A stretch of 64,000 nucleotides of DNA, taken from contig JAQUQD010000002.1 of NCBI GenBank assembly GCA_028716265.1, positions 6,882 through 70,881 on the forward strand, given 5' to 3'. This document shows, one piece after another, positions 23,603 through 62,333 of this stretch. The position numbers were made by a program, and so were the translations under genes. This DNA comes from Bacteroidales bacterium. Lineage in GTDB: Bacteria; Bacteroidota; Bacteroidia; Bacteroidales; JAGONC01. Position 1 is the stretch's first letter. Every line of letters starts with the position of its first letter. Under the pieces are notes generated by a model that worked only from the letters and a program-made list of their open reading frames with translations, was not told the DNA's origin and made no database searches.

Positions 23603-25279
23603 TTAAAAGCTGCTGGTTAGTGTTAGTGTGAGTCCGTTGGAGGCCGGCACGTAACGGCATACACCTCCTACGCAGATGATACCTTCCCTCTGGCGTGCAT
23701 ACCGGAGTTCAATACGGCTGGATTCATGCATGTATCCAAATCCAAGATTGTAATAATGGAAGCGTTTGTCCTTGTCAGGATTACCATAGTTGTACTGATC
23801 AAAAACAATGAAGAACCAGTGCGGAGATATGGTATACTCAAGCAATCCCATTGCCCAGTCACCTTTGTCCTGCTCGCTCCAGAGATGCTGCAGCTCCATG
23901 CGGAGTGCATGCTTGTCGTTCAGACGGTATACCAGATCGGCAACTGCTGTGTGTGCATAGACCACAGGTTCACCCGTGTGACCTTCAATGATTTCAATAT
24001 TATACACCTGGTACATGTAAAACAGGATGGCCTTGAAGGAGGAACTGAACTTGCGCGTCAGCTCAACGTTGAACTCTTCGTAGTACTTGGTGTCACCCTT
24101 GCCGAACAGGGAAGCTTCATAACCATCTGTCCCGGGTGTGCCAATGGCTGTGGTGTCATTCAATGCGGTCCGTCCAATGTCATCCGTTCTGGAATAAGAC
24201 AGTTTGACCGTGGTGCCATATTTTCCGCCGATCTTTGTCTTTTTGGGGACCGTGTAAACCACCTGCCCAAGGTAGCCAAACTCACCTGTGGGCTGTGTGG
24301 CGTAAGGATAGATGGCAGCCAGGGAATACGCATATTGATCTGTCAGTGGCGGGAGAAAATTGATATCCAGCGTATTACCAGTCTCCGTACGTTTCGATTT
24401 AAAGCTCATGTTGTCGATATACTTGCTGCTGAGGGTGATCCCTAGTCCTTTGACCGAATAGTTGGCGTTAAGCCATATGGCCTGGCCATTCTTATAGATA
24501 TACTTATTGATGGCAGAGGGGTCGTTGTATTTAAGCGCATATTCCCCGTTCAGCGTAAATCCCCCGCGTATCAGGTTCAACCTGCCTGACCACGCACCCA
24601 CATCCAGCGGAAGGTTCAGCATGTGGGATTCATCCACCATGATCTGTTCGTCAGGCTGGTATTTGCTTACAAAGCTTCCGCCCAGGACAATCCGTGTCCG
24701 GGCGTCTGACCATTTTTTGATCACATCGTTGAAATTGATCTCTCCGTCCACTCCACGAATGATACCAGGCCCTTTGTCCCAGAAAAAACGCTGCTTCCCG
24801 ATCACTCCCTTCACGATGATCCCTTGCACAGGCTCAATTTTAGCCCTGAATCCGTCAATGGAATTATCATACCCAAGGTTCCACTCTTCGTAACTTCTTA
24901 AAACCAGACCATTTCCAAACTGCTCATAAAAATTGCCTGCTGTCAGATCGAACATTCCCTTTTTAAACTGCAGATACCGGTAAGGAATACCCTGTCCTTT
25001 GTATCGCGGGTCATAGCCGAGGATGGGATCAAGGTAGCCTTCATAGCGGATCCCTGCCGTAAAAGGTCCATTGGTATAGATCACATTCAGAAAACCGTTC
25101 ATCAGCATTTTTTCTTCCACATCCGGGGCACCGATGGCCGAGTCAGCTTTATAGGTCTGGGCATCCAGCTGAAAGCTGCCGTGAACATCGCCACCCAGAA
25201 AAGTCTGGGATTGAACAAAGGAAGGGATGAGGAAGAACAAAACAGGTATGTAACGGATGAATTGTAGAAAGTTATTCAT
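23603..25279 (-). CDS. predicted outer-membrane beta-barrel protein (DUF6029-like, by recollection)
   Basis: 558 aa. Signal peptide MNNFLQFIRYIPVLFFLIPSFVQSQ, alternating aromatic/Gly beta-strand pattern and a C-terminal LTLTLTSSF ending in Phe. It lies between two thioredoxin-fold genes. Confidence 0.55.
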   Translation of the reverse strand: MNNFLQFIRYIPVLFFLIPSFVQSQTFLGGDVHGSFQLDAQTYKADSAIGAPDVEEKMLMNGFLNVIYTNGPFTAGIRYEGYLDPILGYDPRYKGQGIPYRYLQFKKGMFDLTAGNFYEQFGNGLVLRSYEEWNLGYDNSIDGFRAKIEPVQGIIVKGVIGKQRFFWDKGPGIIRGVDGEINFNDVIKKWSDARTRIVLGGSFVSKYQPDEQIMVDESHMLNLPLDVGAWSGRLNLIRGGFTLNGEYALKYNDPSAINKYIYKNGQAIWLNANYSVKGLGITLSSKYIDNMSFKSKRTETGNTLDINFLPPLTDQYAYSLAAIYPYATQPTGEFGYLGQVVYTVPKKTKIGGKYGTTVKLSYSRTDDIGRTALNDTTAIGTPGTDGYEASLFGKGDTKYYEEFNVELTRKFSSSFKAILFYMYQVYNIEIIEGHTGEPVVYAHTAVADLVYRLNDKHALRMELQHLWSEQDKGDWAMGLLEYTISPHWFFIVFDQYNYGNPDKDKRFHYYNLGFGYMHESSRIELRYARQREGIICVGGVCRYVPASNGLTLTLTSSF

Positions 25280-25294
25280 TGTTATTCATTGTTA

Positions 25295-25834
25295 TTATTC
25301 CTGCACCTTGCCGGAGATGTCTTCGCCGGCTTTCACTTTCCGGACAAGATCGATCAGCTCAAGTTCAGCGCCTTCCGTGAAGGAAGTATGCTGCCAAACG
25401 ATCTCTCCCTTGCCGTTGATCAGAAAAGTATGAGGGATAAGGTTCACATTCATGGCCCTTTTAAAATCACCGTTGGGATCGAGATAGACCTCGTAGGACC
25501 ATCCCTTACCGTTGACAAAGGGCATTACCTTGGACGATGACCTTGAATCGTCGATGGAGATGGCAACCAGCTTCACTCCGGTCTCTTCCTGCCAGTCGTC
25601 ATAGACATCGCTGATGGTTGTAAGTTCTCGTATGCAGGGCTTGCACCATAATGCCCAGAAACTGATGATCATCGGATTGTTGTCATTGGCCAGGTCGGCC
25701 GTGTTGAAACTCTGTCCATCCATGGTCTTCACGGTAACCGCGGGTATGGTCCTGTTCCCCCTGGTATCTCCCTGGGCAAAACAGGTAACACCAGTCATTA
25801 ATACAATGAGGATGGGCAAAATGATCTTTTTCAT
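25295..25834 (-). CDS. TlpA-family thiol:disulfide oxidoreductase
   Basis: Signal peptide MKKIILPILIVLMTGVTCFAQ, thioredoxin active site FWALWCKPC and a cis-Pro region (NLIPHTFLI). An alternative start lies 4 codons upstream at 25846. Confidence 0.85.
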   Translation of the reverse strand: MKKIILPILIVLMTGVTCFAQGDTRGNRTIPAVTVKTMDGQSFNTADLANDNNPMIISFWALWCKPCIRELTTISDVYDDWQEETGVKLVAISIDDSRSSSKVMPFVNGKGWSYEVYLDPNGDFKRAMNVNLIPHTFLINGKGEIVWQHTSFTEGAELELIDLVRKVKAGEDISGKVQE

Positions 25835-29736: not shown

Positions 29737-31644
29737 TTAACGGATCATTTCCTTAACGCACCGGATGATACCCGTCAGGTCGTATCCGCATTCGGCCTGC
29801 AGCTCTTCAATAGTCCCCTGGCTGATGAAATGGTCGGGAACCCCCAGGCGGCTGACCGAGGCCGTGTACAAATGATCGGCCATGAATTCGAGCACGGCAC
29901 TTCCCAACCCGCCAACGATCGTTCCATCTTCCACGGTGATGATCTTTTTGAATCGCTGGAATACCTCATGAAGCAGCTGCTCATCGAGCGGTTTGAGGAA
30001 CCTCATATCATAATGAGCAGGGAAGATGGATTCTTTATTCAGCTCACCAACGGCACGGACCACCGTATTCCCGATATGTCCTATGGAAAGGATGGCAAGC
30101 TCTGATCCCCCGCATATACGCTGTCCTTTTCCGATCTCCAGTTTTTCGAAGGAGGTTTTCCATTCCGGCATGACGCCACGGCCGCGCGGGTAACGGATGG
30201 CAAAGGGACCTGTACCCTCCAGCTGGGCAGTGTACATCATGTTACGGAGTTCCTTTTCATTAAGAGGTGAGGCAATGATCATATTGGGAACCGACCTTAG
30301 AAAAGACAGATCAAACGTGCCATGGTGGGTTGGTCCATCCTCCCCCACCAACCCGCCCCTGTCGATGCAGAAAACCACATGCAGCCTTTGCAGCGCCACA
30401 TCATGGATCAGCTGGTCATATCCGCGCTGCATGAACGTAGAATAGATATTGCAGAAAGGGATCATTCCCTCTGCCGCCAGCCCCGCAGAGAACGTGACGG
30501 CATGCTGCTCGGCAATCCCGACATCGAACGCCCGGTGTGGCATTTTCTGCATCATGATGTTCAACGAGCAGCCTGTTGGCATGGCAGGCGTGACCCCCAC
30601 GATGCGTGGATTGGCTTCAGCCAGCTCCAGGATGGTACGCCCGAAAACCGTCTGGTATTTGGGTGGTTTTTTGCCGGGACAGGGCTCTTCTGTCTCCACC
30701 AGTTCTCCGGTCTCTTTATCGAAGGTACCGGGTGCATGGTAAATGGTCTGCTCTTTTTCAGCCATATAAAAGCCCTTGCCCTTGACTGTGATCACATGCA
30801 ACAGTTTCGGGCCCTGGATGTTCTTCAGATCGCGGAGAAGCTTGGTAAGCTTGACCACATCATGACCATCAACCGGTCCGAAATACCTGAAGTTCAGTGC
30901 TTCGAAGAAGTTGGATCCCTTCAGGATGGTTGATTTGACGGCATTCCCGATCTGTTTGACGACGGCACGCGAATTCTTGCCGTATTTTGTACGGCCTCCC
31001 ATCAGGATCCAGACCTTGTCCTTGAATTTATTGTAAGCCCTTGAAGTGACGATCCTCAACAGGTACTGGCTGAGGGCGCCCACGCTCCGGTCAATGGCTA
31101 TCCCATTGTCATTCAGGATGACCAGCATGTTTGCCCCGGATACACCTGCATTGTTCAGGGCCTCCATGGCCATTCCCCCTGTCATGGCTCCGTCACCGAT
31201 AACTGCAATATGATGCCGGTGGTTGTTTTCGCGAAGGTTTGCAGCAACGGCCATTCCCAATGCGGCGGAGATCGAGGTGGAGGAATGCCCCACCCCAAAC
31301 GAGTCGTATTCGCTTTCTGACATCTTCGGAAAACCACTGATGCCTTTGAACTTCCTGTTCATGAAAAACAGATCCTTTCTGCCCGTCAGGATCTTGTGTG
31401 CGTAAGCCTGGTGCCCCACGTCCCAGATCAACCGGTCGTGCGGTGTGTCAAACACATAATGGATGGCAACGGCCAGCTCCACGGCACCCAGACTGGATCC
31501 GAGATGGCCCGGATTATTTGCCGTCTGCTCGATGATAAACCTCCTGATCTCAGCACAGAGCTGAGGAAGCTCTTCTTCCTTCAGGATTTTCAAATCTGAA
31601 GGGAAGTTGATGCGGGATAGGAGGCTGTCAGCGTTTAGAGGCAC
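29737..31644 (-). CDS. dxs: 1-deoxy-D-xylulose-5-phosphate synthase
   Basis: 635 aa. Motifs: PGHLGSSLGAVELAVAIHYVF, DVGHQAYAHKILTGR, IGDGAMTGGMAMEALN, DRGGLVGEDGPTHHG. The start is GTG at 31642-31644. Confidence 0.95.
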   Translation of the reverse strand: MPLNADSLLSRINFPSDLKILKEEELPQLCAEIRRFIIEQTANNPGHLGSSLGAVELAVAIHYVFDTPHDRLIWDVGHQAYAHKILTGRKDLFFMNRKFKGISGFPKMSESEYDSFGVGHSSTSISAALGMAVAANLRENNHRHHIAVIGDGAMTGGMAMEALNNAGVSGANMLVILNDNGIAIDRSVGALSQYLLRIVTSRAYNKFKDKVWILMGGRTKYGKNSRAVVKQIGNAVKSTILKGSNFFEALNFRYFGPVDGHDVVKLTKLLRDLKNIQGPKLLHVITVKGKGFYMAEKEQTIYHAPGTFDKETGELVETEEPCPGKKPPKYQTVFGRTILELAEANPRIVGVTPAMPTGCSLNIMMQKMPHRAFDVGIAEQHAVTFSAGLAAEGMIPFCNIYSTFMQRGYDQLIHDVALQRLHVVFCIDRGGLVGEDGPTHHGTFDLSFLRSVPNMIIASPLNEKELRNMMYTAQLEGTGPFAIRYPRGRGVMPEWKTSFEKLEIGKGQRICGGSELAILSIGHIGNTVVRAVGELNKESIFPAHYDMRFLKPLDEQLLHEVFQRFKKIITVEDGTIVGGLGSAVLEFMADHLYTASVSRLGVPDHFISQGTIEELQAECGYDLTGIIRCVKEMIR

Positions 31645-31660
31645 GGGAAGGGATGGGATT

Positions 31661-31820
31661 GTTTGTGGTTATTTGTTGTTATTGGTTGTTATTTGTTGTT
31701 ATTGGTTGTTATTGGTTGTTATTGGTTGTTATTGGTTGTTATTGGTTGTTATTGGTTGTCATTCGTTGTCATTCGTTGTCATTCGTTGTCATTCGTTGTC
31801 ATTGGTTGTCATTGGTAGTG
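31661..31820 (+). repeat. tandem array of about 16 units of a 10-nt word (ATTGGTTGTT / ATTTGTTGTT / ATTCGTTGTC)
   Basis: The units sit in perfect 10-nt register from 31671 to 31820, preceded by one degenerate unit. The run is ATTTGTTGTT, ATTGGTTGTT, ATTTGTTGTT, then 5 x ATTGGTTGTT, then ATTGGTTGTC, 4 x ATTCGTTGTC, ATTGGTTGTC and ATTGGTAGTG. It begins 16 nt upstream of the dxs start. Confidence 0.95.
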
Positions 31821-31830
31821 AAGAATTACT

Positions 31831-31880
31831 ATAAATGACCATAAATGACTACAAATAACCATGTAGGACCATAAATGCCC
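31831..31880 (+). repeat. second 10-nt array (ATAAATGACC-type, 5 units), a degenerate inverted copy of the first array
   Basis: Units are ataaatgacc ataaatgact acaaataacc atgtaggacc ataaatgccc. acaaataacc (31851-31860) is the exact complement of ggttatttgt (31667-31676). AATGAC complements the GTCATT core of the left array. Confidence 0.8.
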
Positions 31881-31896
31881 ATGACCACCTCTTGCC

Positions 31897-32217
31897 TCAC
31901 ATAAATCCCAGCTCCAGCATCCCTTCCTGGGAGATCATGTCCTGTGACCATGGAGGATCAAAGAGAATTTGGACCTCCACATCCGCAACACCTTCCAGAA
32001 GCCGCACCTTATCCCTGACCTCAACGGGCAGGGATTCAGCGACCGGGCAACTGGGAGCGGTCAGAGTCATTTTTATGGTCACATGGTCCGATTCGCCGAT
32101 CACAATATCATAGACCAGTCCCAGATCATAGATGTTCACCGGTATCTCTGGATCATAGATCCCTTTCAGTACCTGGATGATCCGCTGTTCAAGCATTATT
32201 TTATCCGTGCTGCTCAT
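31897..32217 (-). CDS. SUF-associated Fe-S assembly protein (DUF59/MIP18, SufT-like)
   Basis: ORF 31897-32265 trimmed to MSSTDKIMLEQ. Motifs: IYDPEIPVNIYDLGLVYDI and MTLTAPSCPVAESL. It overlaps the sufE stop by 17 nt. Confidence 0.8.
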   Translation of the reverse strand: MSSTDKIMLEQRIIQVLKGIYDPEIPVNIYDLGLVYDIVIGESDHVTIKMTLTAPSCPVAESLPVEVRDKVRLLEGVADVEVQILFDPPWSQDMISQEGMLELGFM

Positions 32218-37652: not shown

Positions 37653-37660
37653 CAAAGTTA
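37653..37660 (-). promoter_or_regulatory. putative -7 box (TAACTTTG on minus strand) for the suf operon
   Basis: Plus strand caaagtta, 66 nt upstream of the sufB ATG at 37586. Confidence 0.4.
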
Positions 37661-37777: not shown

Positions 37778-37803
37778 TACCCATCAATCATGTGGCAACC
37801 ACC

Positions 37804-38883
37804 ATGTTCGAAAACAGAAACAAACGGACAGAGCTTTCCGGGCTGGGAGAGTTTGGCCTGATACGGCACCTGACAAAGGATATCCATATTAAGAATAGCA
37901 GCACGCTCAAGGGAGTGGGTGACGATGCGGCGGTGCTGGATTACCAGGGCAGGAAGATCCTTGTTTCCACGGATCTGCTCATTGAAGGGATTCATTTCGA
38001 TTTGACCTATACGCCACTGAAGCACTTAGGGTACAAGGCAGCTGTTGTCAATTTTTCGGATATTGCCGCCATGAATGCATTTCCTGAACAGCTGACGTTG
38101 AGCATTGCCGTTTCCAACCGCTTTTCGCTGGAGGCTCTCGATGAGATCTACTCCGGAATCTACCTGGCCTGTGAGCGGTACGGTGTCGATTTTATCGGAG
38201 GGGACACTTCTTCCAGCGTCACCGGACTGATGATGTCGCTGACAGTGCTGGGGGCAGCCAGCAAAGCTGACATCACCTACCGGGATACTGCCCGCATAGG
38301 AAACCTTGTCTGCGTTAGCGGCGACCTCGGCGGAGCATACATGGGCCTGCTGCTGCTCGAAAGAGAAAAAAAGGTCTTCAAGGCTGATCCCCTAGTCCGC
38401 CCTGACCTTGAAGGATACGATTACATCCTGCAGCGGCAGCTCAAACCGGAAGCCAGAGTGGACATTATCAGAAAACTCAGGGATCTTCGGATCAAACCCA
38501 CCGCCATGATCGATATTTCGGACGGGCTGGCCTCAGAGATCCTTCACATCTGTACCGGATCGAAGACCGGCTGCTCCCTGTATGAAGAAAAGATCCCCAT
38601 GGATCCTGCCACTATGCAGACATCCTATGAGATGGGCATCGATCCGACGGTCAGCGCCCTCAACGGCGGGGAAGATTATGAATTGCTTTTCACTATAGAT
38701 ATGAAGGATTACGAAAAGATCAAGGACGATCCGGATCTGTCAGTCATTGGCCATATCACGGATCAGTCGGGTGGGATGAACCTCATTACCAGGTCGGGAG
38801 GGCAGGTACCGTTGAAGGCACAGGGATGGGATGCGTTCTTTGAAAGGAGAGAGGAGAAAGGAGAAAGGAGAAAGGAGAAATGA
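37804..38883 (+). CDS. thiL: thiamine-monophosphate kinase
   Basis: ORF 37792-38883 trimmed to MFENRNKRTELSGLGEFGLIRHL. Motifs: GVGDDAAVL, TDLLIEGIHF, GGDTSSS. The last about 13 codons ([13 protein letters not shown]) are encoded by the GARAGGA heptamer array. Confidence 0.85.
   Translation: MFENRNKRTELSGLGEFGLIRHLTKDIHIKNSSTLKGVGDDAAVLDYQGRKILVSTDLLIEGIHFDLTYTPLKHLGYKAAVVNFSDIAAMNAFPEQLTLSIAVSNRFSLEALDEIYSGIYLACERYGVDFIGGDTSSSVTGLMMSLTVLGAASKADITYRDTARIGNLVCVSGDLGGAYMGLLLLEREKKVFKADPLVRPDLEGYDYILQRQLKPEARVDIIRKLRDLRIKPTAMIDISDGLASEILHICTGSKTGCSLYEEKIPMDPATMQTSYEMGIDPTVSALNGGEDYELLFTIDMKDYEKIKDDPDLSVIGHITDQSGGMNLITRSGGQVPLKAQGWDAFFERREEKGERRKEK
38842..38883 (+). repeat. GARAGGA-family heptamer array, 6 units, 39-nt purine-only run
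   Basis: Units are GAAAGGA GAGAGGA GAAAGGA GAAAGGA GAAAGGA GAAATGA. The final unit contains both the uvrC ATG (38880) and the thiL TGA stop (38881-38883). Confidence 0.95.
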
Positions 38884-40691
38884 AGCGGGTGGAGGATCCT
38901 TTGGCGCCCCTGATCCGTACGATGCCGGAAAAGCCCGGGATCTACCAGTATTTTGACCGGGAGGGACGGATCATCTATATCGGGAAGGCGAAGAACCTGA
39001 AAAAAAGGGTTTCTTCCTATTTCAACAAAGATGCTTCGCTGAGCGGCAAGGTACGGACCCTGGTAAAGAATATCGCCGACATCCAGCATTTGGTCGTGGA
39101 TACGGAACTGGACGCCATCCTTCTGGAAAACAACCTCATCAAGAAACACCAGCCCAGGTACAACGTTCAATGGAAAGACGACAAGACCTTCCCGTGGATA
39201 TGCATCAGGAATGAACGTTTCCCCAGAGTATATCCGACGCGTAACGTAGTGCAAGACGGATCCCAGTATTTTGGTCCCTACGGTTCGGTCAGGATGATGA
39301 AGACACTGCTGGAACTGATCAGGGCGCTCTATCCGCTGCGCAATTGTTCACTGCATCTGTCGGAGTCCAACATCGCAAGAAAAAAATTCAGGGTGTGTCT
39401 TGAGTACCATCTTGGAAACTGCAAGGGTCCCTGTGAGGGACTGCAGGGAGAAGACGAGTATCAGGACTCCATAACAGCAATCCGGGAGATTATCAAAGGG
39501 AACATCCACACGGTGATCATTCAGTTAAAAGAATTGATGAATGAATATGCCAGTCGGCTGGAATTTGAAAAAGCTCACCTTGTGAAGGAGAAGATCGCAT
39601 TGCTGGAACGCTATCAGAGCAAGTCACTGGTGGTCAACCCGGCCATCCGGCATGCAGACGTATTTTCGATCGTGTCGGACGATCGTTACGGATACGTGAA
39701 TTACATCAAAGTGGTGAATGGAGCCATTGTGCAGGCTCATACGATCGAGATACGGAAAAAACTGGATGAGGCTGATGCTGAGCTGCTGGCCCTGGCCATT
39801 GCTGATTTTCGTCAGCGTTTCAACAGCGACGCTACGGAAATGATCATACCGATGAAGGTGGAACTGGCGTACCCGGATGTGGTATTTACGGTTCCCCAGC
39901 GTGGCGACAAAAAAAAACTGCTTGAGTTGTCAGAAAGAAATGCCAGGTACCTCCAGGCAGAAAAAGAAAAACAACGCGAGCTGGTCGATCCTGAGCGTCA
40001 TTCGCGCAGGATCCTTACTGTGCTGATGAATGACCTTCGGCTGAAAGAGGTGCCGGACCGTATTGAATGTTTTGATAATTCAAACATCCAGGGGAGTTAT
40101 CCTGTTGCTGCCATGGTCGTGTTCAGGAACGGCAAGCCGGATAAGAAAGAGTACCGCCACTTCATTGTCAAATCGGTGGACGGACCTGATGATTATGCTT
40201 CCATGGAAGAGATCATCCACCGTCGATATAAAAGGGTACTCGAGGAAAAAGGTGAACTTCCCCAGTTGATCATCATCGACGGTGGAAAAGGACAGCTGAA
40301 CGCAGCATTGAACAGCCTGGAAAAACTTGGGTTGAAAAACCGGATAGCCATCATCGGGATTGCCAAAAAGCTTGAGGAGATCTATTATCCTAACGACCCG
40401 CTCCCATTGTACCTGAACAAGAAGTCAGAAAGCCTCAAACTGATCCAGCAATTACGCAACGAAGCCCATCGTTTCGGCATAGCGCATCACCGCAGGCGAA
40501 GGGAAAAGGGTACATTGAAAACCGAGCTCACGCAGATCCCAGGTATTGGAGGCAAATATGCCCAGGGGCTGCTTAAACATTTCCGTTCGGTGGAGGGGGT
40601 TCGCAAAGCTTCACTGGAAGAGATCCAGAATACGATCGGCAGGAAGAAGGGGCAGGTGGTCTACGAGTATTTTAAAAACAAAAAGACCTGA
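38880..40691 (+). CDS. uvrC: excinuclease ABC subunit C
   Basis: 603 aa. GIY-YIG motif GIYQYFDREGRIIYIGKAKNLKKRVSSYF, a UVR domain (EFEKAHLVKEKIALLE) and a C-terminal RNase H-like plus (HhH)2 region. Confidence 0.95.
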   Translation: MKRVEDPLAPLIRTMPEKPGIYQYFDREGRIIYIGKAKNLKKRVSSYFNKDASLSGKVRTLVKNIADIQHLVVDTELDAILLENNLIKKHQPRYNVQWKDDKTFPWICIRNERFPRVYPTRNVVQDGSQYFGPYGSVRMMKTLLELIRALYPLRNCSLHLSESNIARKKFRVCLEYHLGNCKGPCEGLQGEDEYQDSITAIREIIKGNIHTVIIQLKELMNEYASRLEFEKAHLVKEKIALLERYQSKSLVVNPAIRHADVFSIVSDDRYGYVNYIKVVNGAIVQAHTIEIRKKLDEADAELLALAIADFRQRFNSDATEMIIPMKVELAYPDVVFTVPQRGDKKKLLELSERNARYLQAEKEKQRELVDPERHSRRILTVLMNDLRLKEVPDRIECFDNSNIQGSYPVAAMVVFRNGKPDKKEYRHFIVKSVDGPDDYASMEEIIHRRYKRVLEEKGELPQLIIIDGGKGQLNAALNSLEKLGLKNRIAIIGIAKKLEEIYYPNDPLPLYLNKKSESLKLIQQLRNEAHRFGIAHHRRRREKGTLKTELTQIPGIGGKYAQGLLKHFRSVEGVRKASLEEIQNTIGRKKGQVVYEYFKNKKT

Positions 40692-41569: not shown

Positions 41570-41950
41570 TCAGGCTTCAGTGATCATCCTGTACTTGTCG
41601 GCATCCAGTAGTTCATCCACTTCCGCAGGATTAGAAATCCTGATCTTCACTATCCAGCCGTCTCCGTAAGGATCTTTGTTGATCAACTCGGGCTGGTCCG
41701 ACAGGGCCTCATTGAACTCCAGTATCTCGCCGGATACCGGCATAAAAATATCCGATACGGTTTTTACTGCTTCAATAGTACCGAAGGCTTCACCTTTCGT
41801 TAGTGACTCTCCCACCGTTTCCACTTCCAGAAACACGACATCACCCAGTTCACTCTGAGCAAAATCGGTGACTCCAATATACCCGTGCCCATTTTCTATT
41901 CTCAGCCATTCATGGTTTTCTGTAAATCTCAGGTTATCAGGTACTTTCAT
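41570..41950 (-). CDS. gcvH: glycine cleavage system protein H
   Basis: 126 aa. Motifs: HEWLRIENGHGYIGVTDFAQ, and the lipoyl-lysine motif IEAVKTVSDI. Confidence 0.95.
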   Translation of the reverse strand: MKVPDNLRFTENHEWLRIENGHGYIGVTDFAQSELGDVVFLEVETVGESLTKGEAFGTIEAVKTVSDIFMPVSGEILEFNEALSDQPELINKDPYGDGWIVKIRISNPAEVDELLDADKYRMITEA

Positions 41951-42000
41951 ATAAATTAATGAATTTTAACAGTTTGGATGTCAAAATTAAAAAAATTGTT

Positions 42001-42061
42001 GGTTGATTGGTTGATGGAGGAAAAATATTTTATTCAGGCACAAAGGCACAGAGGCACAGAG
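42001..42061 (+). repeat. composite short-word repeats in the sprA-gcvH spacer (GGTTGAT x2, then GCACARAG x3)
   Basis: ggttgatt ggttgat lies at 42001-42015. gcacaaag gcacagag gcacagag lies at 42038-42061 and ends 5 nt from the sprA stop codon (42067-42069). Confidence 0.8.
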
Positions 42062-42066
42062 AATTT

Positions 42067-54698: not shown

Positions 54699-55776
54699 AT
54701 GGTTACGATAGAACAGATCAAAGAGCTAGAGAAGAGGCTGGAAGCCCTGAGGAGGTATCTTTGACATTGATGTCAAGAAATTGCAGACCAAAGAAGAAGA
54801 AAAACTAACGCATGAGCCTGATTTCTGGGAGGATCCCAAAATGGCAGAGGCTGTTTTGAGATCCATCCGGGATAAAAAAGAATGGACGCTTGCCTTCGAC
54901 AGAACCAAGGCTCATTTTGATGATCTGATGGTCATCTATGAATTCTTTGAAGCAGGTGAGAGCACGGAGAGCGAACTGGATGCTCAGTATACCACATGCT
55001 TGAAAGCCATTGATGACATGGAATTCATGAAAATGCTCAGCGGGGAGGAAGACCGGCTCAATGCCATTTTGTCGATCAACCCCGGGGCAGGAGGAACTGA
55101 AAGTCAGGACTGGGCGCAGATGCTCATGCGCATGTACATCCGGTGGGGAGAACGGCATAACTACAAGATCAAGGAACTGGACTACCAGGAAGGTGATGTG
55201 GCAGGGCTGAAATCGGTTTCCATTGAATTTGACGGAGAATTTGCCTACGGCTATCTCAAGGGGGAGAATGGCGTCCACCGTCTTGTCAGGATCTCCCCTT
55301 TTGATTCGAACAGCCGTCGGCACACTTCATTTGCATCGGTGTATGCCTATCCCGTTGTGGATGAGAATATCCAGATAGACATCAATCCGGCTGACATCAC
55401 ATGGGATTTTTTCCGGTCAAGCGGACCAGGAGGGCAAAATGTGAATAAAGTCGAAACGGCGGTCAGGCTCAGGCATAAAAGCGGGATCATCATCGAATGT
55501 CAGGAAACCCGCTCTCAGCTTCAGAATAAAGATAAAGCCCTCCAGATGCTTCGCTCACAGCTTTATGAGATCGAACTGAGGAAGAAAAAGGAGGAACAGG
55601 CCAAAATCGAGGGATCAAAAAAGAAGATCGAATGGGGTTCTCAGATCCGGAGCTATGTGATGCAACCATATAAACTGGTGAAAGATCTGCGCACCGGGTA
55701 TGAAACAGGCAATGTCCAGGCAGTCATGGATGGCGAGATTGATGAGTTCATCAAGGCGTACCTGATGGAGTTCTAG
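54699..55776 (+). CDS. prfB: peptide chain release factor 2, requires programmed +1 frameshift at 54762
   Basis: Frame 0 runs from ATG 54699 and encodes MVTIEQIKELEKRLEALRRYL, then TGA at 54762-54764. The +1 frame from 54763 joins ORF 54781-55776, which carries the SPF-type region, GGQNVNKVETAV (GGQ motif) and other RF2 core motifs. Confidence 0.9.
54750..54765 (+). promoter_or_regulatory. RF2 autoregulatory +1 frameshift site
   Basis: AGGAGG TAT CTT TGA C: an SD-like AGGAGG 3 nt upstream of the slippery CTT followed by the in-frame TGA-C. This is nearly identical to the E. coli prfB site AGGGGG TAT CTT TGA C. Confidence 0.9.
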
Positions 55777-55804: not shown

Positions 55805-55876
55805 GAACAATTGAACAAATGAACAATTTAACAATTTGACAATTTAACAGTTTAACAGTTTAACAGTTTAACAATT
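55805..55876 (+). repeat. tandem array of 9 units of an 8-nt word (GAACAATT / TAACAATT / TAACAGTT)
   Basis: Units are gaacaatt gaacaaat gaacaatt taacaatt tgacaatt taacagtt taacagtt taacagtt taacaatt, in perfect 8-nt register. The array ends 15 nt upstream of the fumC ATG. It is preceded by gtcggct gtcggca (55781-55794). Confidence 0.95.
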
Positions 55877-55891
55877 GAATCAGGATTTATC

Positions 55892-57274
55892 ATGAAGACA
55901 CGAATTGAAAAAGACACAATGGGCACTGTGGAGGTTCCTGCCGACAGGTACTGGGGTGCACAGACACAACGGTCAAAAGACAACTTTAAAATTGGTACGG
56001 GAACCATGCCCATCGAGATCATTAGGGCATTTGCGATACTGAAAAAGGCGGCTGCACTGGCCAATTTTGATCTGGGAGTGCTTCCGGCCGAAAAAAAGGA
56101 CCTGATCTGCCAGGTATGTGATGAGATCTACGAAGGTAAACTGGATGACCATTTTCCGCTGGTGATATGGCAAACCGGTTCAGGGACGCAGTCGAACATG
56201 AACGTGAATGAAGTCATCGGCAACAGGGCGCATGTTTTAAATGGCGGCGTACTGGGTGAAGGACAGCGGTTCATCCATCCAAACGACGATGTGAACAAAT
56301 CGCAGTCATCCAACGACACGTTTCCGACAGCCATGCACATTGCCGGCTATAAGATGGTAGTGGAGACCACCATCCCCGGCGTCGAAAAGCTGCGCGATGC
56401 ACTTGCCGGGAAAGCGGAAGAATTCAAGAATATTGTCAAGACGGGCCGTACGCACCTGATGGATGCGACGCCGCTGACACTCGGGCAGGAATTTTCAGGA
56501 TACGCATCGCAGCTGGATCACGGTTTGAAAACCTTGAAAAACACATTACCCCATCTTCAGGAACTGGCTCTGGGAGGTACTGCTGTGGGAACCGGCATCA
56601 ACACGCCCAAGGGATACGCTGAACTGGTTGCCAGAAAGATCGCCGAACTCTCGGGACATCCGTTCATCACAGCACCGAACAAATTTGAGGCCCTCTCAGC
56701 CCATGATGCCATGGTGGAAACGTCGGGAGCGCTGAAGACCCTTGCCGTAAGTCTAATGCACATCGCCAGCAACATTCGTCTGCTTTCCTCCGGGCCGCGT
56801 TGCGGTTACAGCGAGATCATCCTTCCGGCCAACGAACCGGGATCCTCGATCATGCCGGGAAAAGTGAATCCCACGCAGCCGGAAGCGCTCACCATGGTTT
56901 GCGCCCAGGTCCTTGGAAACGATGTCGCCATCAACATCGGAGGGACGCACGGGCACTTCCAGCTCAATGTGTTCAAGCCGGTCATGATCGCCAATCTTCT
57001 GCAGTCAGCAAGGCTGCTGGGCGACGCATGCATATCGTTCACCGACCACTGCGTGGTTGACATCCAGCCCAACATGCCGTACATCCAAAAGAACCTTGAG
57101 AACTCACTGATGCTCGTCACTGCACTGAACACACATATCGGGTATGACAATTCCGCGAAGATCGCAAAGAAAGCGCATACCGAGAACAAAACGCTGCGCG
57201 AGGCGGCCATTGAACTAGGACTTGTGACGGAGGAACAGTTCCGGGAGTGGGTTGATCCTGCGAAAATGATATGA
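55892..57274 (+). CDS. fumC: class II fumarate hydratase
   Basis: 460 aa. Motifs: [64 protein letters not shown] (signature SS loop). Confidence 0.95.
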
Positions 57275-57361: not shown

Positions 57362-58552
57362 TTAACGATTGTATTTTCTCTTTCGGTAAAAAATCCACAA
57401 TAGGATCAGGCCGGTGAAGGTCAGGCCGCGAAGGAACCAAGTTTTTTGTTGATCGATCCTGAATGCCGGGGGGTTGGACGGGATCGTTTCCTTATAGCGT
57501 GCCACGGGATTCAGATAAAAGGTGGTACCGTCGGGGTAAGCGATTTCCGTTCGGATATAGGGATCAGAGGCCTGTATCGTATAAGCTGCTATGGAAGAAT
57601 TGGCTTGCCTTGATTTGACGATCCCGCCCCCACTGATGAACCTGAATTCCGCCGCTGATGAATCCATTTCAACCAGCAGGGTATCACCCTGCAACTGTAC
57701 TTTTCTCAGGCGCGGCAGGTGTTGATGCCTCAACGCTTTTTGCTCCATAGTCTCTCCCAGGGGCCTGGGTATTTCTGCTCCATAGGATTGCCCTTTTTTG
57801 AGGGAAGCGATGATCTGGGACGAATGGTTGAGCGGGGAATGGATCATCGTGCAGAACTGTCCGACTTCGTCAGGATTGGATACGTCATGTGCATCGTCGT
57901 TGGCCAGAATGGTAACATAACGTCCGGCCGATAGGGCTGTATCCCAGTGCCCGATTGATTTCCGGAAGCCATTGAGTGCTTCAATGCCATCGTAATTCGA
58001 CAGCCATTTCACCTCTTCCGCAGGATAATCCCTGGTGAATTCCGGATGGGCAATATACACCAGATCACTGGAAGCTCTCAAACGGTTAAGGATCTGTTGT
58101 TTATGATGAAGGTTCTGGAATAGGGGGTAATCGTTCCAGATGACCTTGTGGGCACCGATCAGCACATGATGGTTCTTTTCAAATCCATAACCATGTTCAT
58201 AGACCGGGATGAAGCCGGGTTGGTCAGAGCCCCAGGTATTGATCTTCTGGTAGTCAGAGATGGCAATGATATCATATCCAAGCTGTCTGTACACATCGAA
58301 GATCAGTTCGTTCGAATTTTTACGTCCGTCGGTGATGCCTCCCCAGGCTTTGGACTGGACCTGAAAATTACCTTTGCGCCATACCGCGGAGTCGATGTTC
58401 TGGTAGGGATTATACAATTTATTGCCGGAAAAGGACGCTGGTTCGGAAAATTTAAAGACCGGGCACATCAGGTGGTGAAGGATCAGGATCCCAATGGCCA
58501 GAATCAGGAGATAAAGAATAGGTTTACCGATAAGTGATATGATGTTGCGCAT
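57362..58552 (-). CDS. hypothetical membrane-anchored protein with degenerate PHP-like (CehA/McbA-type) motifs
   Basis: 396 aa with an N-terminal TM helix (ILYLLILAIGILILHHL) and a C-terminal TM helix (GLTFTGLILLWIFY). The motif series FQVQS, AISDY, YEHGY, IAHPE, IEALNG and ANDDAHD is ordered like PHP-domain metal-binding motifs, but Gln/Tyr replace some His residues. The CDS is likely real; its function is uncertain. Confidence 0.4.
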   Translation of the reverse strand: MRNIISLIGKPILYLLILAIGILILHHLMCPVFKFSEPASFSGNKLYNPYQNIDSAVWRKGNFQVQSKAWGGITDGRKNSNELIFDVYRQLGYDIIAISDYQKINTWGSDQPGFIPVYEHGYGFEKNHHVLIGAHKVIWNDYPLFQNLHHKQQILNRLRASSDLVYIAHPEFTRDYPAEEVKWLSNYDGIEALNGFRKSIGHWDTALSAGRYVTILANDDAHDVSNPDEVGQFCTMIHSPLNHSSQIIASLKKGQSYGAEIPRPLGETMEQKALRHQHLPRLRKVQLQGDTLLVEMDSSAAEFRFISGGGIVKSRQANSSIAAYTIQASDPYIRTEIAYPDGTTFYLNPVARYKETIPSNPPAFRIDQQKTWFLRGLTFTGLILLWIFYRKRKYNR

Positions 58553-58566
58553 ATGAGCCTTTTCTT

Positions 58567-58632
58567 GAGAGGAGAGAGGAGAAAGGAGAAAGGAGAGATA
58601 AATAATGAAATATCTCTCCTTTCTCCTTTCTC
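58567..58632. repeat. GARAGGA heptamer array plus its perfect inverted copy (21-bp palindrome); probable terminator of the acyl-CoA carboxylase operon
   Basis: The plus strand carries gagagga gagagga gaaagga gaaagga gagataa (58567-58601). gagaaaggagaaaggagagat (58579-58599) pairs perfectly with atctctcctttctcctttctc (58612-58632), with a 12-nt loop. In the minus sense the operon stop TAA (58640-58638) is followed directly by GAAATGA GAAAGGA GAAAGGA GAGATAT. Confidence 0.9.
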
Positions 58633-58637
58633 ATTTC

Positions 58638-60176
58638 TTACAACGGTATGTTCCCATGCTTTTTCGGGGGATTGGATTTGCTTTTATTCTGCGTCATCTC
58701 CAGGGCCTGGATGAGTTTGAATCGGGTTTCCCTGGGGAGGATGATCTCATCGATGTAGCCCAGTTCGGCTGCTTTGTATGGGCTGGCGAAGGTCTTCTTA
58801 TAATCTTCGACAGCAGCAGCCTTCTCCTCGTCGGAGAGGCGGTCACGAAAGATGATGTTCACAGCGCCTTCAGGTCCCATGACAGCAATTTCTGCCGAGG
58901 GGTAGGCAAAATTCATGTCGGCGCCGATATGTTTGCTCGACATAACGTCATAGGCACCTCCATAGGCCTTGCGTGTGATGACAGTGATTTTGGGGACGGT
59001 TGCCTCACAGAATGCGTACAGGAGTTTAGAGCCGTGCTTGATGATGCCTCCGAATTCCTGGGCGGTCCCTGGCAGGAAGCCCGGCACATCCACAAACGTG
59101 ATGAGGGGGATGTTGAATGCATCACAGAACCTTACAAACCGTGCTCCCTTGACGGAAGAGTTGATGTCCAGTACACCGGCCAGGTTTTCAGGCTGGTTGG
59201 CCACAATGCCGACGGGACGACCTCCCAGACGGGAAAATCCGACGATGATGTTCTGTGCATAGTACGGCATGACCTCAAAGAAATGGTAATCATCCACTAC
59301 GGTCCTGATGATCTCCTTCATGTCGTATGGAGTTCTGGAATCAACGGGGATGAATTTCTGGAGCCGCTCATCCTCCCGGTGGATATCGTCGGTACAGGGT
59401 TTCAGGGGGGGGTCTTCCATGTTGTTGGAAGGCAGGAAGGTCATCAGTTCGCGGATCATCATCATGCATTGTTCGTCGTTCTCGGCTACAAAATGAGCCA
59501 CACCGCTCTTGGTGTTGTGTGTCATGGCGCCGCCGAGCTCATCCTTGGTAACTTCTTCGTGTGTGACGGCTTTGATCACATCGGGGCCGGTGACGAACAT
59601 ATAACTGGAGTCTTTCACCATAAAAATGAAATCCGTCATGGCTGGAGAATAAACGGCCCCCCCTGCGCACGGGCCCAGGATCGCTGAGATCTGCGGGATC
59701 ACGCCTGATCCCATCACGTTGAGATAAAATATATCGGCGTATCCTCCCAAGCTTTCCACCCCTTCCTGTATCCGGGCACCCCCTGAGTCGTTCAGACCGA
59801 TCACCGGAGCACCCACCTTCATGGCATGTTGTACGATCTTCACGATCTTATCGGCATTGGCGCTGCTCAGCGTGCCTCCGAAAACAGTAAAATCCTGGGC
59901 AAACACGAATACAAGTCTCCCCTCGATCCTGCCATATCCGGAAACGACGCCGTCTCCCAGTATTTTATTCTTATCCATCCCAAAGTCGGTGGCACGATGG
60001 GTCACGAACTTATCCATCTCGACGAACGTGCCCGCGTCCAGCAGATCCTGGATCCTTTCCCTGGCTGTTTTCCGGCCGGCCTGATGCTGCCTGTCGATCC
60101 GCTCTTTTCCCCCACCCTGTTCAGCCAGTATGTTCCGTATCTCCAGCTGTTTGTATTTTTCTTCGTGTGATGCCAT
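58638..60176 (-). CDS. acyl-CoA carboxylase carboxyltransferase subunit (propionyl-CoA carboxylase beta / methylmalonyl-CoA carboxyltransferase family)
   Basis: 512 aa. Motifs: [67 protein letters not shown]. Confidence 0.9.
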
Positions 60177-60191
60177 AGGGTTCTGTTTTTG

Positions 60192-60268
60192 GTTGCAGGT
60201 TGCAGGCTACAGGTTACAGGTTGCAGGTTTGGAATTAACTTGAAACCTGAAACTTGAAACCTGCAACT
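60192..60268 (-). repeat. eleven heptamers in one continuous 7-nt register filling the BCCP-carboxyltransferase spacer
   Basis: The plus strand reads gttgcag gttgcag gctacag gttacag gttgcag gtttgga attaact tgaaacc tgaaact tgaaacc tgcaact. gttgcaggttt (60220-60230) pairs with aaacctgcaac (60257-60267). The array starts at the BCCP stop codon TAG (60267-60269). Confidence 0.9.
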
Positions 60269-60776
60269 ATTCAAGCAGTATCAGCGTCTGGTTCCCGTCC
60301 ACCGTCGCTCCTTCCTTCACCAGGATATCTTTCACCACGCCATCTTTTTTTGCCTTGAACTCACTTTCCATCTTCATGGCAGATACAATGATCAGGGTCT
60401 GTCCCGGTTTGACCCGGAATCCTACTTTGACAGGGATACTGACCACCTTTCCCGGCATCGGGGAGAAGATCCTGTTTCCGGCTTCGCCGAACTGGCTTTT
60501 TTCCCTGCTTCGGAGATATTTTGTCTCCGCATCCACAATCTCCACATCATAGGATCTCAGGTAGGTGTTCACCGTATATTTCCTGCCTACTCCGTTCCGG
60601 ATCAGCTCAAGATTATAGGAACGGTTGTTCAGCAGGATGGAGTAGATGCCTTCTTCTACCATGACAAGGTCCAGCTCATAGATTTTATCATCCACGGCAA
60701 TTTTTATCTGGTTGCCTTCCTGATAGATGAGTTCTACGGTTGCCGAACGTTTACCAAGATTTACTTCATAGGGCAT
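60267..60776 (-). CDS. biotin carboxyl carrier protein (biotin/lipoyl attachment domain)
   Basis: 169 aa. The C-terminal biotinyl domain carries SPMPGKVV and the biotinylation motif SAMKMES. Confidence 0.85.
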   Translation of the reverse strand: MPYEVNLGKRSATVELIYQEGNQIKIAVDDKIYELDLVMVEEGIYSILLNNRSYNLELIRNGVGRKYTVNTYLRSYDVEIVDAETKYLRSREKSQFGEAGNRIFSPMPGKVVSIPVKVGFRVKPGQTLIIVSAMKMESEFKAKKDGVVKDILVKEGATVDGNQTLILLE

Positions 60777-62325: not shown

Positions 62326-62333
62326 CAAAGATA
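62326..62333 (-). promoter_or_regulatory. putative -7 box (TATCTTTG on minus strand) for the accC operon
   Basis: Plus strand caaagata, 27 nt upstream of the accC ATG at 62298. Confidence 0.45.

Follow-up and report, generated by a model that had tools for sequence, protein, structure and literature searches.

The 252-nt spacer between sufT and dxs in an uncultured Bacteroidales genome is filled by a block of 10-base repeats together with an inverted partner, and the nature of this element is the subject of the present analysis. The stretch of DNA analysed, referred to here as the window, is 64 kb long, and coordinates without a locus name are positions in it. With modest confidence, we interpret the element as one member, lacking an open reading frame (ORF), of a stem-loop family that is built from inverted tandem arrays and normally surrounds a gene of the protein family PF05635. 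Its identity as a family member is the firmer part of this interpretation and appears likely; the proposed link rests on features of the sequence, namely shared cores, period, architecture and setting. Intervening sequence (IVS) elements and intergenic simple-sequence repeats are both known already, and what is new is the family membership of the element described here. We regard the element as selfish or near-neutral, and as at most modulatory on dxs rather than a dedicated regulator.

An inverted pair of decamer arrays between sufT and dxs

Read along the sense (minus) strand, the element has the layout (GTCATT/GTTATT-N4)n, a loop, and (AATGAC/AATAAC-N4)n. Exact GTYATT cores start at 31859, 31849 and 31839 and are followed by 15 AATRAC cores at exact 10-nt spacing, from 31813 to 31673; the pattern GTYATT-N4-GTYATT is observed 18 times in the window, compared with 0.02 expected from shuffles. 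Tandem Repeats Finder reports the main array at 31668-31816 (period 10, 14.9 copies, 95% matches, no indels, score 214), and direct in-register reading of 31660-31819 gives 16 units, 15 clean and one degenerate. Unit variants occur in blocks, which on the sense strand run as ACAACGAATG four times, ACAACCAATA six times and then an alternation of ACAACAAATA and ACAACCAATA. The second array (31831-31882; period 10, 5.2 copies, 69% matches in the same program) is inverted and degenerate relative to the main one, and the arms 31666-31703 and 31824-31861, of 38 nt each, are 76% complementary. An initial annotation, made from the sequence alone, had described tandem 10-nt units in register with a degenerate inverted copy that occupy nearly the whole spacer and end about 16 nt from the dxs GTG start; these descriptions are borne out, the measured distance to the GTG being 15-16 nt. 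The exact complement that it gave between 31851-31860 and 31667-31676 is also correct by reading. The parts of the element are as follows.

31828..31885, minus strand: upstream (5') arm of five to six degenerate decamers, GTCATT/GTTATT plus TATG, among them three exact GTYATT cores; the predicted stem takes in 31859-31828
31820..31827, minus strand: hairpin loop AAUUCUUC of the predicted fold; the site of the PF05635 ORF in complete family members
31660..31819, minus strand: downstream (3') arm of 16 decamers with AATGAC/AATAAC cores; 31819-31788 are predicted to pair with the 5' arm, and the remainder is an unpaired, G-poor, A/C-rich tail
31645..31659, minus strand: unique leader AUCCCAUCCCUUCCC of 15 nt that separates the array from the dxs start, without a Shine-Dalgarno sequence and without TAnnTTTG

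In the predicted fold of the sense RNA, the stem-loop spans 31859-31788 and comprises 25 bp in blocks of 9, 6, 6 and 4, separated by internal loops and closed by the 8-nt loop. The 127-nt sense segment that contains it has a dG of -33 kcal/mol (z -2.3), so that the potential for a long imperfect hairpin, which had also been proposed at the outset, is confirmed at the level of prediction; the antisense strand gives a somewhat less stable fold (-28.3 kcal/mol, z -1.55).

Several other identities of the region were considered and set aside. A CRISPR array, with repeats of 25-40 nt and unique spacers of similar length, is ruled out by the head-to-tail 10-nt units without spacers. Antisense ORFs of 51-75 aa which run across the array were dismissed as genes, and they need not be coding because the G/T-rich strand has few stop trinucleotides. 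A likeness of the cores to PhoB or Fur boxes was dropped, the period being wrong and the match weak. Rfam gave no match at gathering thresholds anywhere in the window, and hence no rRNA; its E-value mode returned only sub-threshold plant microRNA-precursor hairpins, which were judged meaningless.

Predicted stem-loops of similar design around PF05635 genes

In a relative (locus L003), a 127-aa gene is inserted between sufS and sufE, with a GTTATT decamer array on one side and an inverted, AATAAC-rich stretch on the other. The product of this gene belongs to PF05635/TIGR02436, the 23S rRNA intervening-sequence or four-helix-bundle proteins, and is a homologue of Avd of diversity-generating retroelements; PF05635 is regarded as Avd-like (PMC10053308). 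Further PF05635 genes were found by jackhmmer at L015 (one) and L093 (two). All of them are flanked by arrays, and those at L015, which were checked, are inverted.

Ten cassettes were sampled purely by protein similarity to the L003 protein, the choice depending partly on how long the contigs were. All of the sampled PF05635 genes lie between co-directional genes, and their settings include topA and arginase, epimerase and epimerase, sufS and sufE, and 3HCDH and thiolase, among others. Eight of the ten, from three phyla, carry GT[C/T/A]ATT cores on the upstream side and AAT[A/G/T]AC cores on the downstream side, the spacing being mostly 10 nt. These are the proteins P0001, P0012, P0024, P0016, P0022, P0032, P0051 of Nautilia and P0044 of a Dojkabacteria metagenome-assembled genome, at the loci L003 (where the intervening-sequence protein gene, IVP, stands between sufS and sufE), L129, L132-135, L138, L139-143, L144, L148 (Nautilia) and L149 (Dojkabacteria). 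In the eight cassettes for which cores were counted, the 160 nt upstream hold 24 GTYATT and one AATRAC, and the 160 nt downstream hold 30 AATRAC and no GTYATT. Arms were inverted in seven of eight cassettes, and in the fullest case, L132, 80-nt arms of 84% complementarity give a predicted RNA fold of -156.8 kcal/mol (z -7.0) whose loop contains the ORF. The remaining two of the ten (proteins P0031 and P0092; loci L137 and L136) carry inverted arrays of heptamers or octamers, or else cores of a different sequence, as does L015, a more distant cassette outside the ten. A strict tracking of the array core with the PF05635 clade was rejected, since the arms of P0031 (63% identical) are built of GGGAATT.

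Outside such settings the GTYATT pattern is rare; related Bacteroidales loci totalling 712 kb contain it only next to the L003 IVP gene and a single time in L040. Two-arm composites that lack an ORF are found elsewhere, at L129 3106-3182, L093 11508-11576 and L104 7587-7740 (L104/L117). The window element has the GTYATT upstream arm, the complementary AATRAC downstream arm and the period of about 10 nt, and it lies in the spacer of a co-directional operon.

In its complete form, a member of this family would thus consist of a PF05635 gene inserted between two co-directional operon genes and enclosed by two arms, a GTYATT-N4 run upstream and an inverted AATRAC-N4 run downstream, which together would form a long stem with the ORF in its loop. 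The window element would be a version with the same cores, period and setting, in which the loop has only 8 nt and the downstream arm has been expanded to 16 units by slippage. Carried passively within a suf-dxs transcript, as we infer, its stem would be the likeliest site for RNase III processing or for 3'-end protection of the suf mRNA; such processing by RNase III, suggested by analogy with rRNA intervening sequences, is a tentative possibility.

Two further observations concern the cassettes themselves. Distantly related PF05635 genes stand just upstream of sufE in two Bacteroidales species (L003 1236-1905 and L015 1452-2009), inserted in opposite orientations and with different arm units, GTTATT decamers in the former and GGGCGGAC/GTCCGCC octamers in the latter, and the suf operon seems to be a repeated landing place for PF05635 genes. 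In addition, many of the homologues found by similarity to the L003 protein lie on contigs of about 1 kb or less, which may reflect assembly breaks at repeat-built flanks. Among cultivable bacteria, a Flavobacterium has a four-helix-bundle gene between gmk and nadD (PMC5524665).

Distribution among relatives, copy number and the case for slippage

The Dxs relatives identified in species-representative genomes all come from uncultured Bacteroidales or Bacteroidota. The best of them, RA.bin148, has 90% amino-acid identity and a sufT-dxs spacer of about 50 nt without an array. Because the spacer of this closest species is array-less, the array is taken to be lineage-specific and young, having arisen after the split from the closest sampled species, a conclusion that these genomes partly establish. 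The locus is also present in GCA_016294955.1 and on the Logan contig L082, which breaks inside the array, and it is therefore not an assembly artefact. GCA_016294955.1 has 15 units compared with 16 in the window, one AACAACCAAT unit fewer, with no mismatches in 4.7 kb of flanks. The initial annotation had read the blocks of variants as stepwise local amplification; one unit fewer between identical flanks supports this. Units would accordingly be gained and lost in blocks via replication slippage, which the same pair of genomes partly demonstrates.

Slippage is also the core of an alternative that dispenses with PF05635 altogether. Here the element would be an ordinary long simple-sequence repeat, neutral and derived in situ from an A/C-rich ancestral leader, with the inverted array as a by-product of template switching. 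A survey of the clade, covering 80 related loci and the window and counting arrays of period 6-12 with at least 3.5 copies in Tandem Repeats Finder (gene maps were taken from a greedy ORF caller), lends this alternative some substance: arrays of period 7-10 are common, 88 of the 111 arrays are intergenic in DNA of which a crude ORF map assigns about 92% to ORFs, and some array is present in about 15 of the 81 sufT-dxs spacers, with units that differ among species. The blocks of variants and the difference of 15 versus 16 copies fit equally, the start of the spacer in the closest relative, AACCCACAACAT, resembles the last degenerate unit of the array, AACCACAAACAAT, and such arrays are known without a function in Bacteroidetes, Cyanobacteria and Beggiatoaceae (PMC4679880). 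The unit is also not enriched over shuffles in viral contigs. What in-situ slippage leaves unexplained is the recurrence of the same cores, the 10-nt period and the two-arm architecture around homologous PF05635 genes at unrelated loci in three phyla, as well as the near-absence of the pattern elsewhere in the 712 kb of related loci. We consider this alternative doubtful.

A number of observations nevertheless weigh against the interpretation as an ORF-less family member. The window element, with its 8-nt loop, contains no PF05635 gene or remnant, and jackhmmer found no family member among the ORFs of the window; the element is for this reason classed as a derivative or relative without an ORF and not as a complete cassette. 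Its stem, of 25 bp interrupted by internal loops, is short and has a z of only -2.3, its arms are very unequal (about 5 versus 16 units), and its suggested processing is pure analogy. The order of the arms, with the GTYATT arm first, is no independent evidence of orientation, because a hairpin is self-reverse-complementary and reads alike on both strands, and it was dropped as evidence; only the asymmetry of arm length is orientation-specific, with the long G-poor arm beside the start codon on the sense strand. The difference of 15 versus 16 units could be an assembly collapse. Within the clade survey, only 7 of the 111 arrays have an inverted partner within 120 nt, compared with 1-3 in controls. 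Most clade arrays are thus without such a partner, and many may have arisen independently of cassettes; an adjacent inverted partner as a general property of clade arrays was rejected on the same counts. A metagenome scan for two tandem units returned 39 contigs, and most (AACAACCAAT)n arrays on metagenome contigs are solitary, without an inverted partner. In viral contigs the real unit gave 3 matches versus 3 and 1 for two shuffles, so that no unusual abundance is claimed. A cyanobacterial origin of the metagenome contigs that bear the window-type array was dropped, there being no enrichment of HIP1.

Transcription context and predicted RNA properties

The neighbouring genes are all on the minus strand, in the order SufBD, SufS, SufE, SufT, Dxs and TauE. 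The following features frame the spacer.

31897..32217, minus strand: sufT (Fe-S assembly protein, PF01883, by Pfam match), the last suf gene; stop TGA at 31899-31897
29737..31644, minus strand: dxs (1-deoxy-D-xylulose-5-phosphate synthase); GTG start at 31644
37653..37660, minus strand: -7 box TAACTTTG of a candidate suf-operon promoter, located 66 nt before the first suf ORF; the nearest upstream Bacteroidetes-type motif for dxs

The mechanically listed sufT ORF (122 aa) is over-extended, the recorded product on public contigs having 106 aa with its start at 32217. The dxs GTG aligns with the ATG of the closest relative's dxs. Use of the Bacteroidetes-type motif in the window is clear, since 14 of 15 intergenic TAnnTTTG matches precede the start of a gene on their own strand, at a distance of 14-36 nt in 11 cases. 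The sufT-dxs spacer has no TAnnTTTG even with one mismatch allowed; the nearest one-mismatch site is 314 nt upstream, inside sufT, and no further intergenic TAnnTTTG lies between the 37653-37660 box and dxs. A scan of the spacer for sigma-70 promoters and intrinsic terminators also returned nothing, with a promoter model that is the wrong one for the phylum. Many relatives have TAnnTTTG 25-35 nt before dxs, with arrays upstream of the motif; the window lineage and the closest relative are without it. Because the spacer lacks the motif and the 50-nt spacer of the closest relative is promoter-less as well, dxs is most likely transcribed by read-through from the candidate suf promoter. The initial annotation had seen no room for a separate promoter of this type, which holds, and had offered transcription of dxs through the array from the suf promoter as one of its options, which is now judged likely.

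The missing promoter bears on explanations at the level of DNA, in which the array would be a phased protein-binding array, curved DNA, a cryptic promoter or a phase-variable switch of dxs. Its exact 10-nt period would set the cores on nearly one helical face, its copy number varies (15 versus 16), and simple-sequence repeats in promoters or 5' untranslated regions (5'-UTRs) control genes of Haemophilus and Moraxella (PMC12721329; cited in PMC4679880). We hold this to be very improbable: no promoter motif is present in or beside the array, a 10.0-nt period would drift against the 10.5-bp helix over 16 units, and dxs is a housekeeping gene and not a contingency locus. The helical phasing that had initially been read into the 10-nt period is moreover not a common denominator, since sister elements in the window and in relatives have periods of 7 and 8 nt. 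The element also does not correspond to a phase-variable contingency locus, with no promoter motif within 314 nt upstream of the GTG and with dxs as the downstream gene.

Downstream of the stem-loop, the next 166 nt, which include the dxs start, are predicted to be structure-free (minimum free energy, MFE, -1.3 kcal/mol), and about 140 nt of them form a G-poor leader up to the GTG. On this modelling, the transcript would present a 25-bp imperfect stem-loop just after sufT and then some 140 nt of unstructured A/C-rich RNA before dxs. The orientation of the element would be tolerated, and perhaps mildly favourable, because the G-poor arm beside the start keeps the Shine-Dalgarno-independent initiation region of dxs unstructured; initiation in Bacteroidia proceeds without Shine-Dalgarno pairing and is tuned by mRNA structure and upstream A residues (PMC6847099).

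The same properties could be read as a function. As a translational leader or ribosome standby site, the G-poor array would keep the dxs start single-stranded and aid the weak GTG, and the number of units would tune expression. Both the predicted lack of structure in the 166 nt up to and past the GTG and the tuning of Bacteroidia initiation (PMC6847099) agree with this. So does the orientation of metagenome arrays of the window unit that abut a start codon, which are in A/C-sense orientation in about 7 cases versus 1, and so do the four array-filled spacers of the window, all of which end 14-16 nt before the start codon. The closest relative, however, manages with a 50-nt spacer, and a dozen units go far beyond any need of a standby site; the orientation bias may reflect only purifying selection against structured leaders, and a purine-rich array of the window (38842-38880) adjoins a start codon. 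A G-poor sense strand as a rule for arrays between co-directional genes was rejected, inspection having shown no consistent bias and the window itself holding this purine-rich counter-example. We hold a leader function to be unlikely, and it can coexist with the interpretation as an ORF-less stem-loop.

A third reading of the RNA, also not favoured, is that the array is a Rho-utilisation site which loads Rho and attenuates read-through from suf into dxs. The composition of the 160-nt array on the sense strand (A91 C43 G10 T16), with the lowest G count among all 160-nt stretches of the 64 kb, is in keeping with this, as are its predicted lack of structure (MFE -1.3 kcal/mol) and the absence of translation, each of the three sense frames containing stops; sister elements likewise have C-rich, G-poor downstream arms. 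Against it stand the mere 10 YC dinucleotides in these 160 nt and the position of dxs, which is essential for the methylerythritol phosphate (MEP) pathway and has no promoter of its own here, so that efficient termination by Rho would be harmful. A Rho-utilisation site would require at least about 70-80 nt of untranslated, unstructured RNA with C well above G, and termination that depends on Rho; the array agrees with this in its composition (C43 G10) and in its predicted lack of structure. The idea rests on composition only, and we judge it quite improbable.

One further feature lies at the dxs start. A perfect 10-nt complement (31646-31655 and 31918-31927) brackets the spacer, with GGAAGGGAUG in the 3' coding region of sufT and CAUCCCUUCC immediately before the dxs GUG in the sense RNA. 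Pairing of the two could occlude the dxs start; the complement is not conserved in the closest relative, and its rough chance expectation is about 0.06.

Other arrays in the window and in related loci

Two heptamer hairpins, both on the minus strand, occur in an acyl-CoA carboxylase operon whose only TAnnTTTG lies at 62326-62333. The first (58553-58637) stands between the carboxyltransferase gene (58638-60176) and the ORF 57362-58552. It starts directly after the stop and consists of GAGAAAGGAGAAAGGAGAGATA, a 10-nt loop and TATCTCTCCTTTCTCCTTTCTC with extra TCCTCTC units, ending 14 nt before the ATG; its short arm is G-rich and its longer arm C-rich, an architecture that matches the sufT-dxs element. 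The second (60177-60266) separates the biotin carboxyl carrier gene (60267-60776) from the carboxyltransferase gene and consists of four TTGCAGG/TTTCAGG units, the loop TTAATTCCAAA and five CCTGCAA units, ending 15 nt before the ATG. In both, as in the sufT-dxs element, the long G-poor arm lies beside the start codon on the sense strand. An octamer array of AACAATTT (55806-55876; 8.9 copies) fills the spacer from a release-factor gene (54781-55776) to a fumarase gene (55892-57274), without an inverted partner or a promoter motif, and ends 14 nt before the ATG. As four array-filled spacers end 14-16 nt before the start codon, it is suggested that such spacers keep only the ribosome-contact region free.

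Further arrays in the window have other settings. A mini-array of the same core family (25271-25296; AATAACAATG in 2.6 copies on the sense strand) overlaps an AhpC/TSA gene at its stop and a DUF6029 gene at its ATG. The purine-rich array at 38842-38880, with 5.6 copies of the heptamer GAAAGGA, reaches to within 2 nt of an ATGA stop/start overlap (ORFs 37792-38883 and 38880-40691) and for this reason seems to encode the C-terminal end of the upstream ORF; it runs counter to the idea of G-poor leader arrays. Upstream of gcvH (41570-41950, minus strand), the interval 41990-42066 holds 3.2 copies of CTGTGCCT and 2.1 copies of ATCAACCA, after which come a T-run and the promoter box TAATTTTG (41982-41989). 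The same layout of arrays, T-run and promoter is found upstream of dxs in many relatives.

In related loci, arrays recur upstream of a conserved gene whose product starts with MIQQ(I/V)G.. (L034 985-1225, L037 1015-1149, L055 1013-1185, L076 861-1016 and L021 967-1071). They consist of a short G-rich array and then a long, C-rich one in which octamers (GTCCGCCY, CTGTTACC, CTGCCCAC) reach up to 19.5 copies, and the two arms enclose about 160 nt in L034. Units of the GTCCGCC type recur at several loci in several species. Intergenic regions of several hundred nt with at least five different adjacent 7-8-nt arrays are found at L030 900-1900 and 3570-3950, L024 2250-2400 and L093 1-900, and at L093 a 13-nt unit in 25 copies adjoins a PF05635 gene.

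Relation to known repeat elements

The closest parallel to the proposed family is the 23S rRNA IVS of Leptospira, Coxiella and others, complete cassettes of both kinds carrying an S23p/PF05635 ORF in the loop. The Coxiella IVS contains an ORF of the PF05635 family and a 28-bp terminal inverted-repeat stem that is cut by RNase III, and it has variable-number heptamers (GACAGAT, two to three copies) upstream of the ORF (PMC4990558). In both cases inverted repeats at the two ends pair as a stem around the ORF, variable-number short tandem repeats adjoin it, and the character is that of a selfish element. Unlike the IVS, which occupies helix 25 or 45 of 23S rRNA, the window element is placed in the spacer of an mRNA operon; it has tandem decamer arrays as arms and no ORF, and cleavage by RNase III is suggested by analogy only.

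A second parallel is provided by the long simple-sequence repeats, which comprise tandem units of 5-11 nt and are almost always intergenic (Mrazek et al. 2007, summarised in PMC4679880). The window array has these properties, with a unit within the range of 5-11 nt, a repeat number far beyond chance, an intergenic position and a variable copy number. TAACTGA heptamer arrays of Beggiatoaceae, Cyanobacteria and Bacteroidetes lie mostly just upstream of start codons, are absent from close relatives and are without a described function (PMC4679880). Common to the window array, the long simple-sequence repeats, the TAACTGA arrays and the short tandemly repeated repetitive (STRR) sequences of cyanobacteria are the tandem, intergenic arrangement and the frequent extension up to a start codon in a preferred orientation. 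As with long simple-sequence repeats, the array is lineage-specific and missing from close relatives of the same gene order, and different arrays may sit side by side. It differs from TAACTGA-type arrays in its period of 10 instead of 7 and in its inverted partner, and from long simple-sequence repeats in sharing its cores with the flanks of a specific gene cassette. The literature that was covered, which was incomplete, contained neither this link nor any report connecting stand-alone PF05635 genes in operons with flanking inverted tandem arrays or with ORF-less copies.

Repetitive extragenic palindromic (REP) sequences and bacterial interspersed mosaic elements (BIME) of enterobacterial operons are imperfect palindromes in transcribed intercistronic spacers, which occur in many copies per genome and can protect upstream mRNA from exonucleases. 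REPs are single palindromes of about 35 nt mobilised by the RAYT transposase. The window element resembles them as an imperfect palindrome in a transcribed intercistronic spacer. It differs in consisting of arrays, has no sequence relation to them, and no counterpart of the RAYT transposase was seen.

Variable-number tandem repeats that are transcribed upstream of a start codon are also known from the hmw heptamers of H. influenzae and the uspA2 AGAT repeats of M. catarrhalis, and the hmw heptamers are associated with RNase III-dependent processing of the 5'-UTR (PMC12721329). Those repeats, in contrast to the present one, sit just downstream of the promoter of surface or virulence genes; here the gene is the housekeeping dxs, and no promoter is near.

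Implications

Short-period intergenic repeats have been catalogued for decades in Bacteroidetes, Cyanobacteria and sulfur bacteria without an explanation, while stand-alone Avd-like or "23S rRNA IVS" proteins are widespread and without a known role. The elements described here would link these two puzzles, in that one class of repeats forms the arms of stem-loops around PF05635 genes in operons of three phyla, and gene-less copies of such stem-loops persist in operon spacers. Both puzzles are thereby made testable, through binding of the proteins to their own repeats, through the stems as RNase III sites, and through movement of the cassettes. Annotation of this locus is affected as well: the final gene of the suf transcript is probably dxs, which follows a hypervariable leader.

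A more far-reaching idea, which we consider improbable, is that the GTYATT cores are specific recognition sites for the pentameric Avd-like cassette proteins and that ORF-less arrays are bound in trans, as RNA or DNA. If true, it would imply a post-transcriptional network inside operons, or the cis-sites of an unrecognised, possibly RNA-mediated, mobility of IVS cassettes, and it would account for one class or more of the long-unexplained intergenic tandem repeats seen in Bacteroidota, and perhaps also in Cyanobacteria and Beggiatoaceae. Through the likeness of the window element to the PF05635 hairpins, one class of unexplained bacterial intergenic repeats looks to be tied to a known kind of selfish element.

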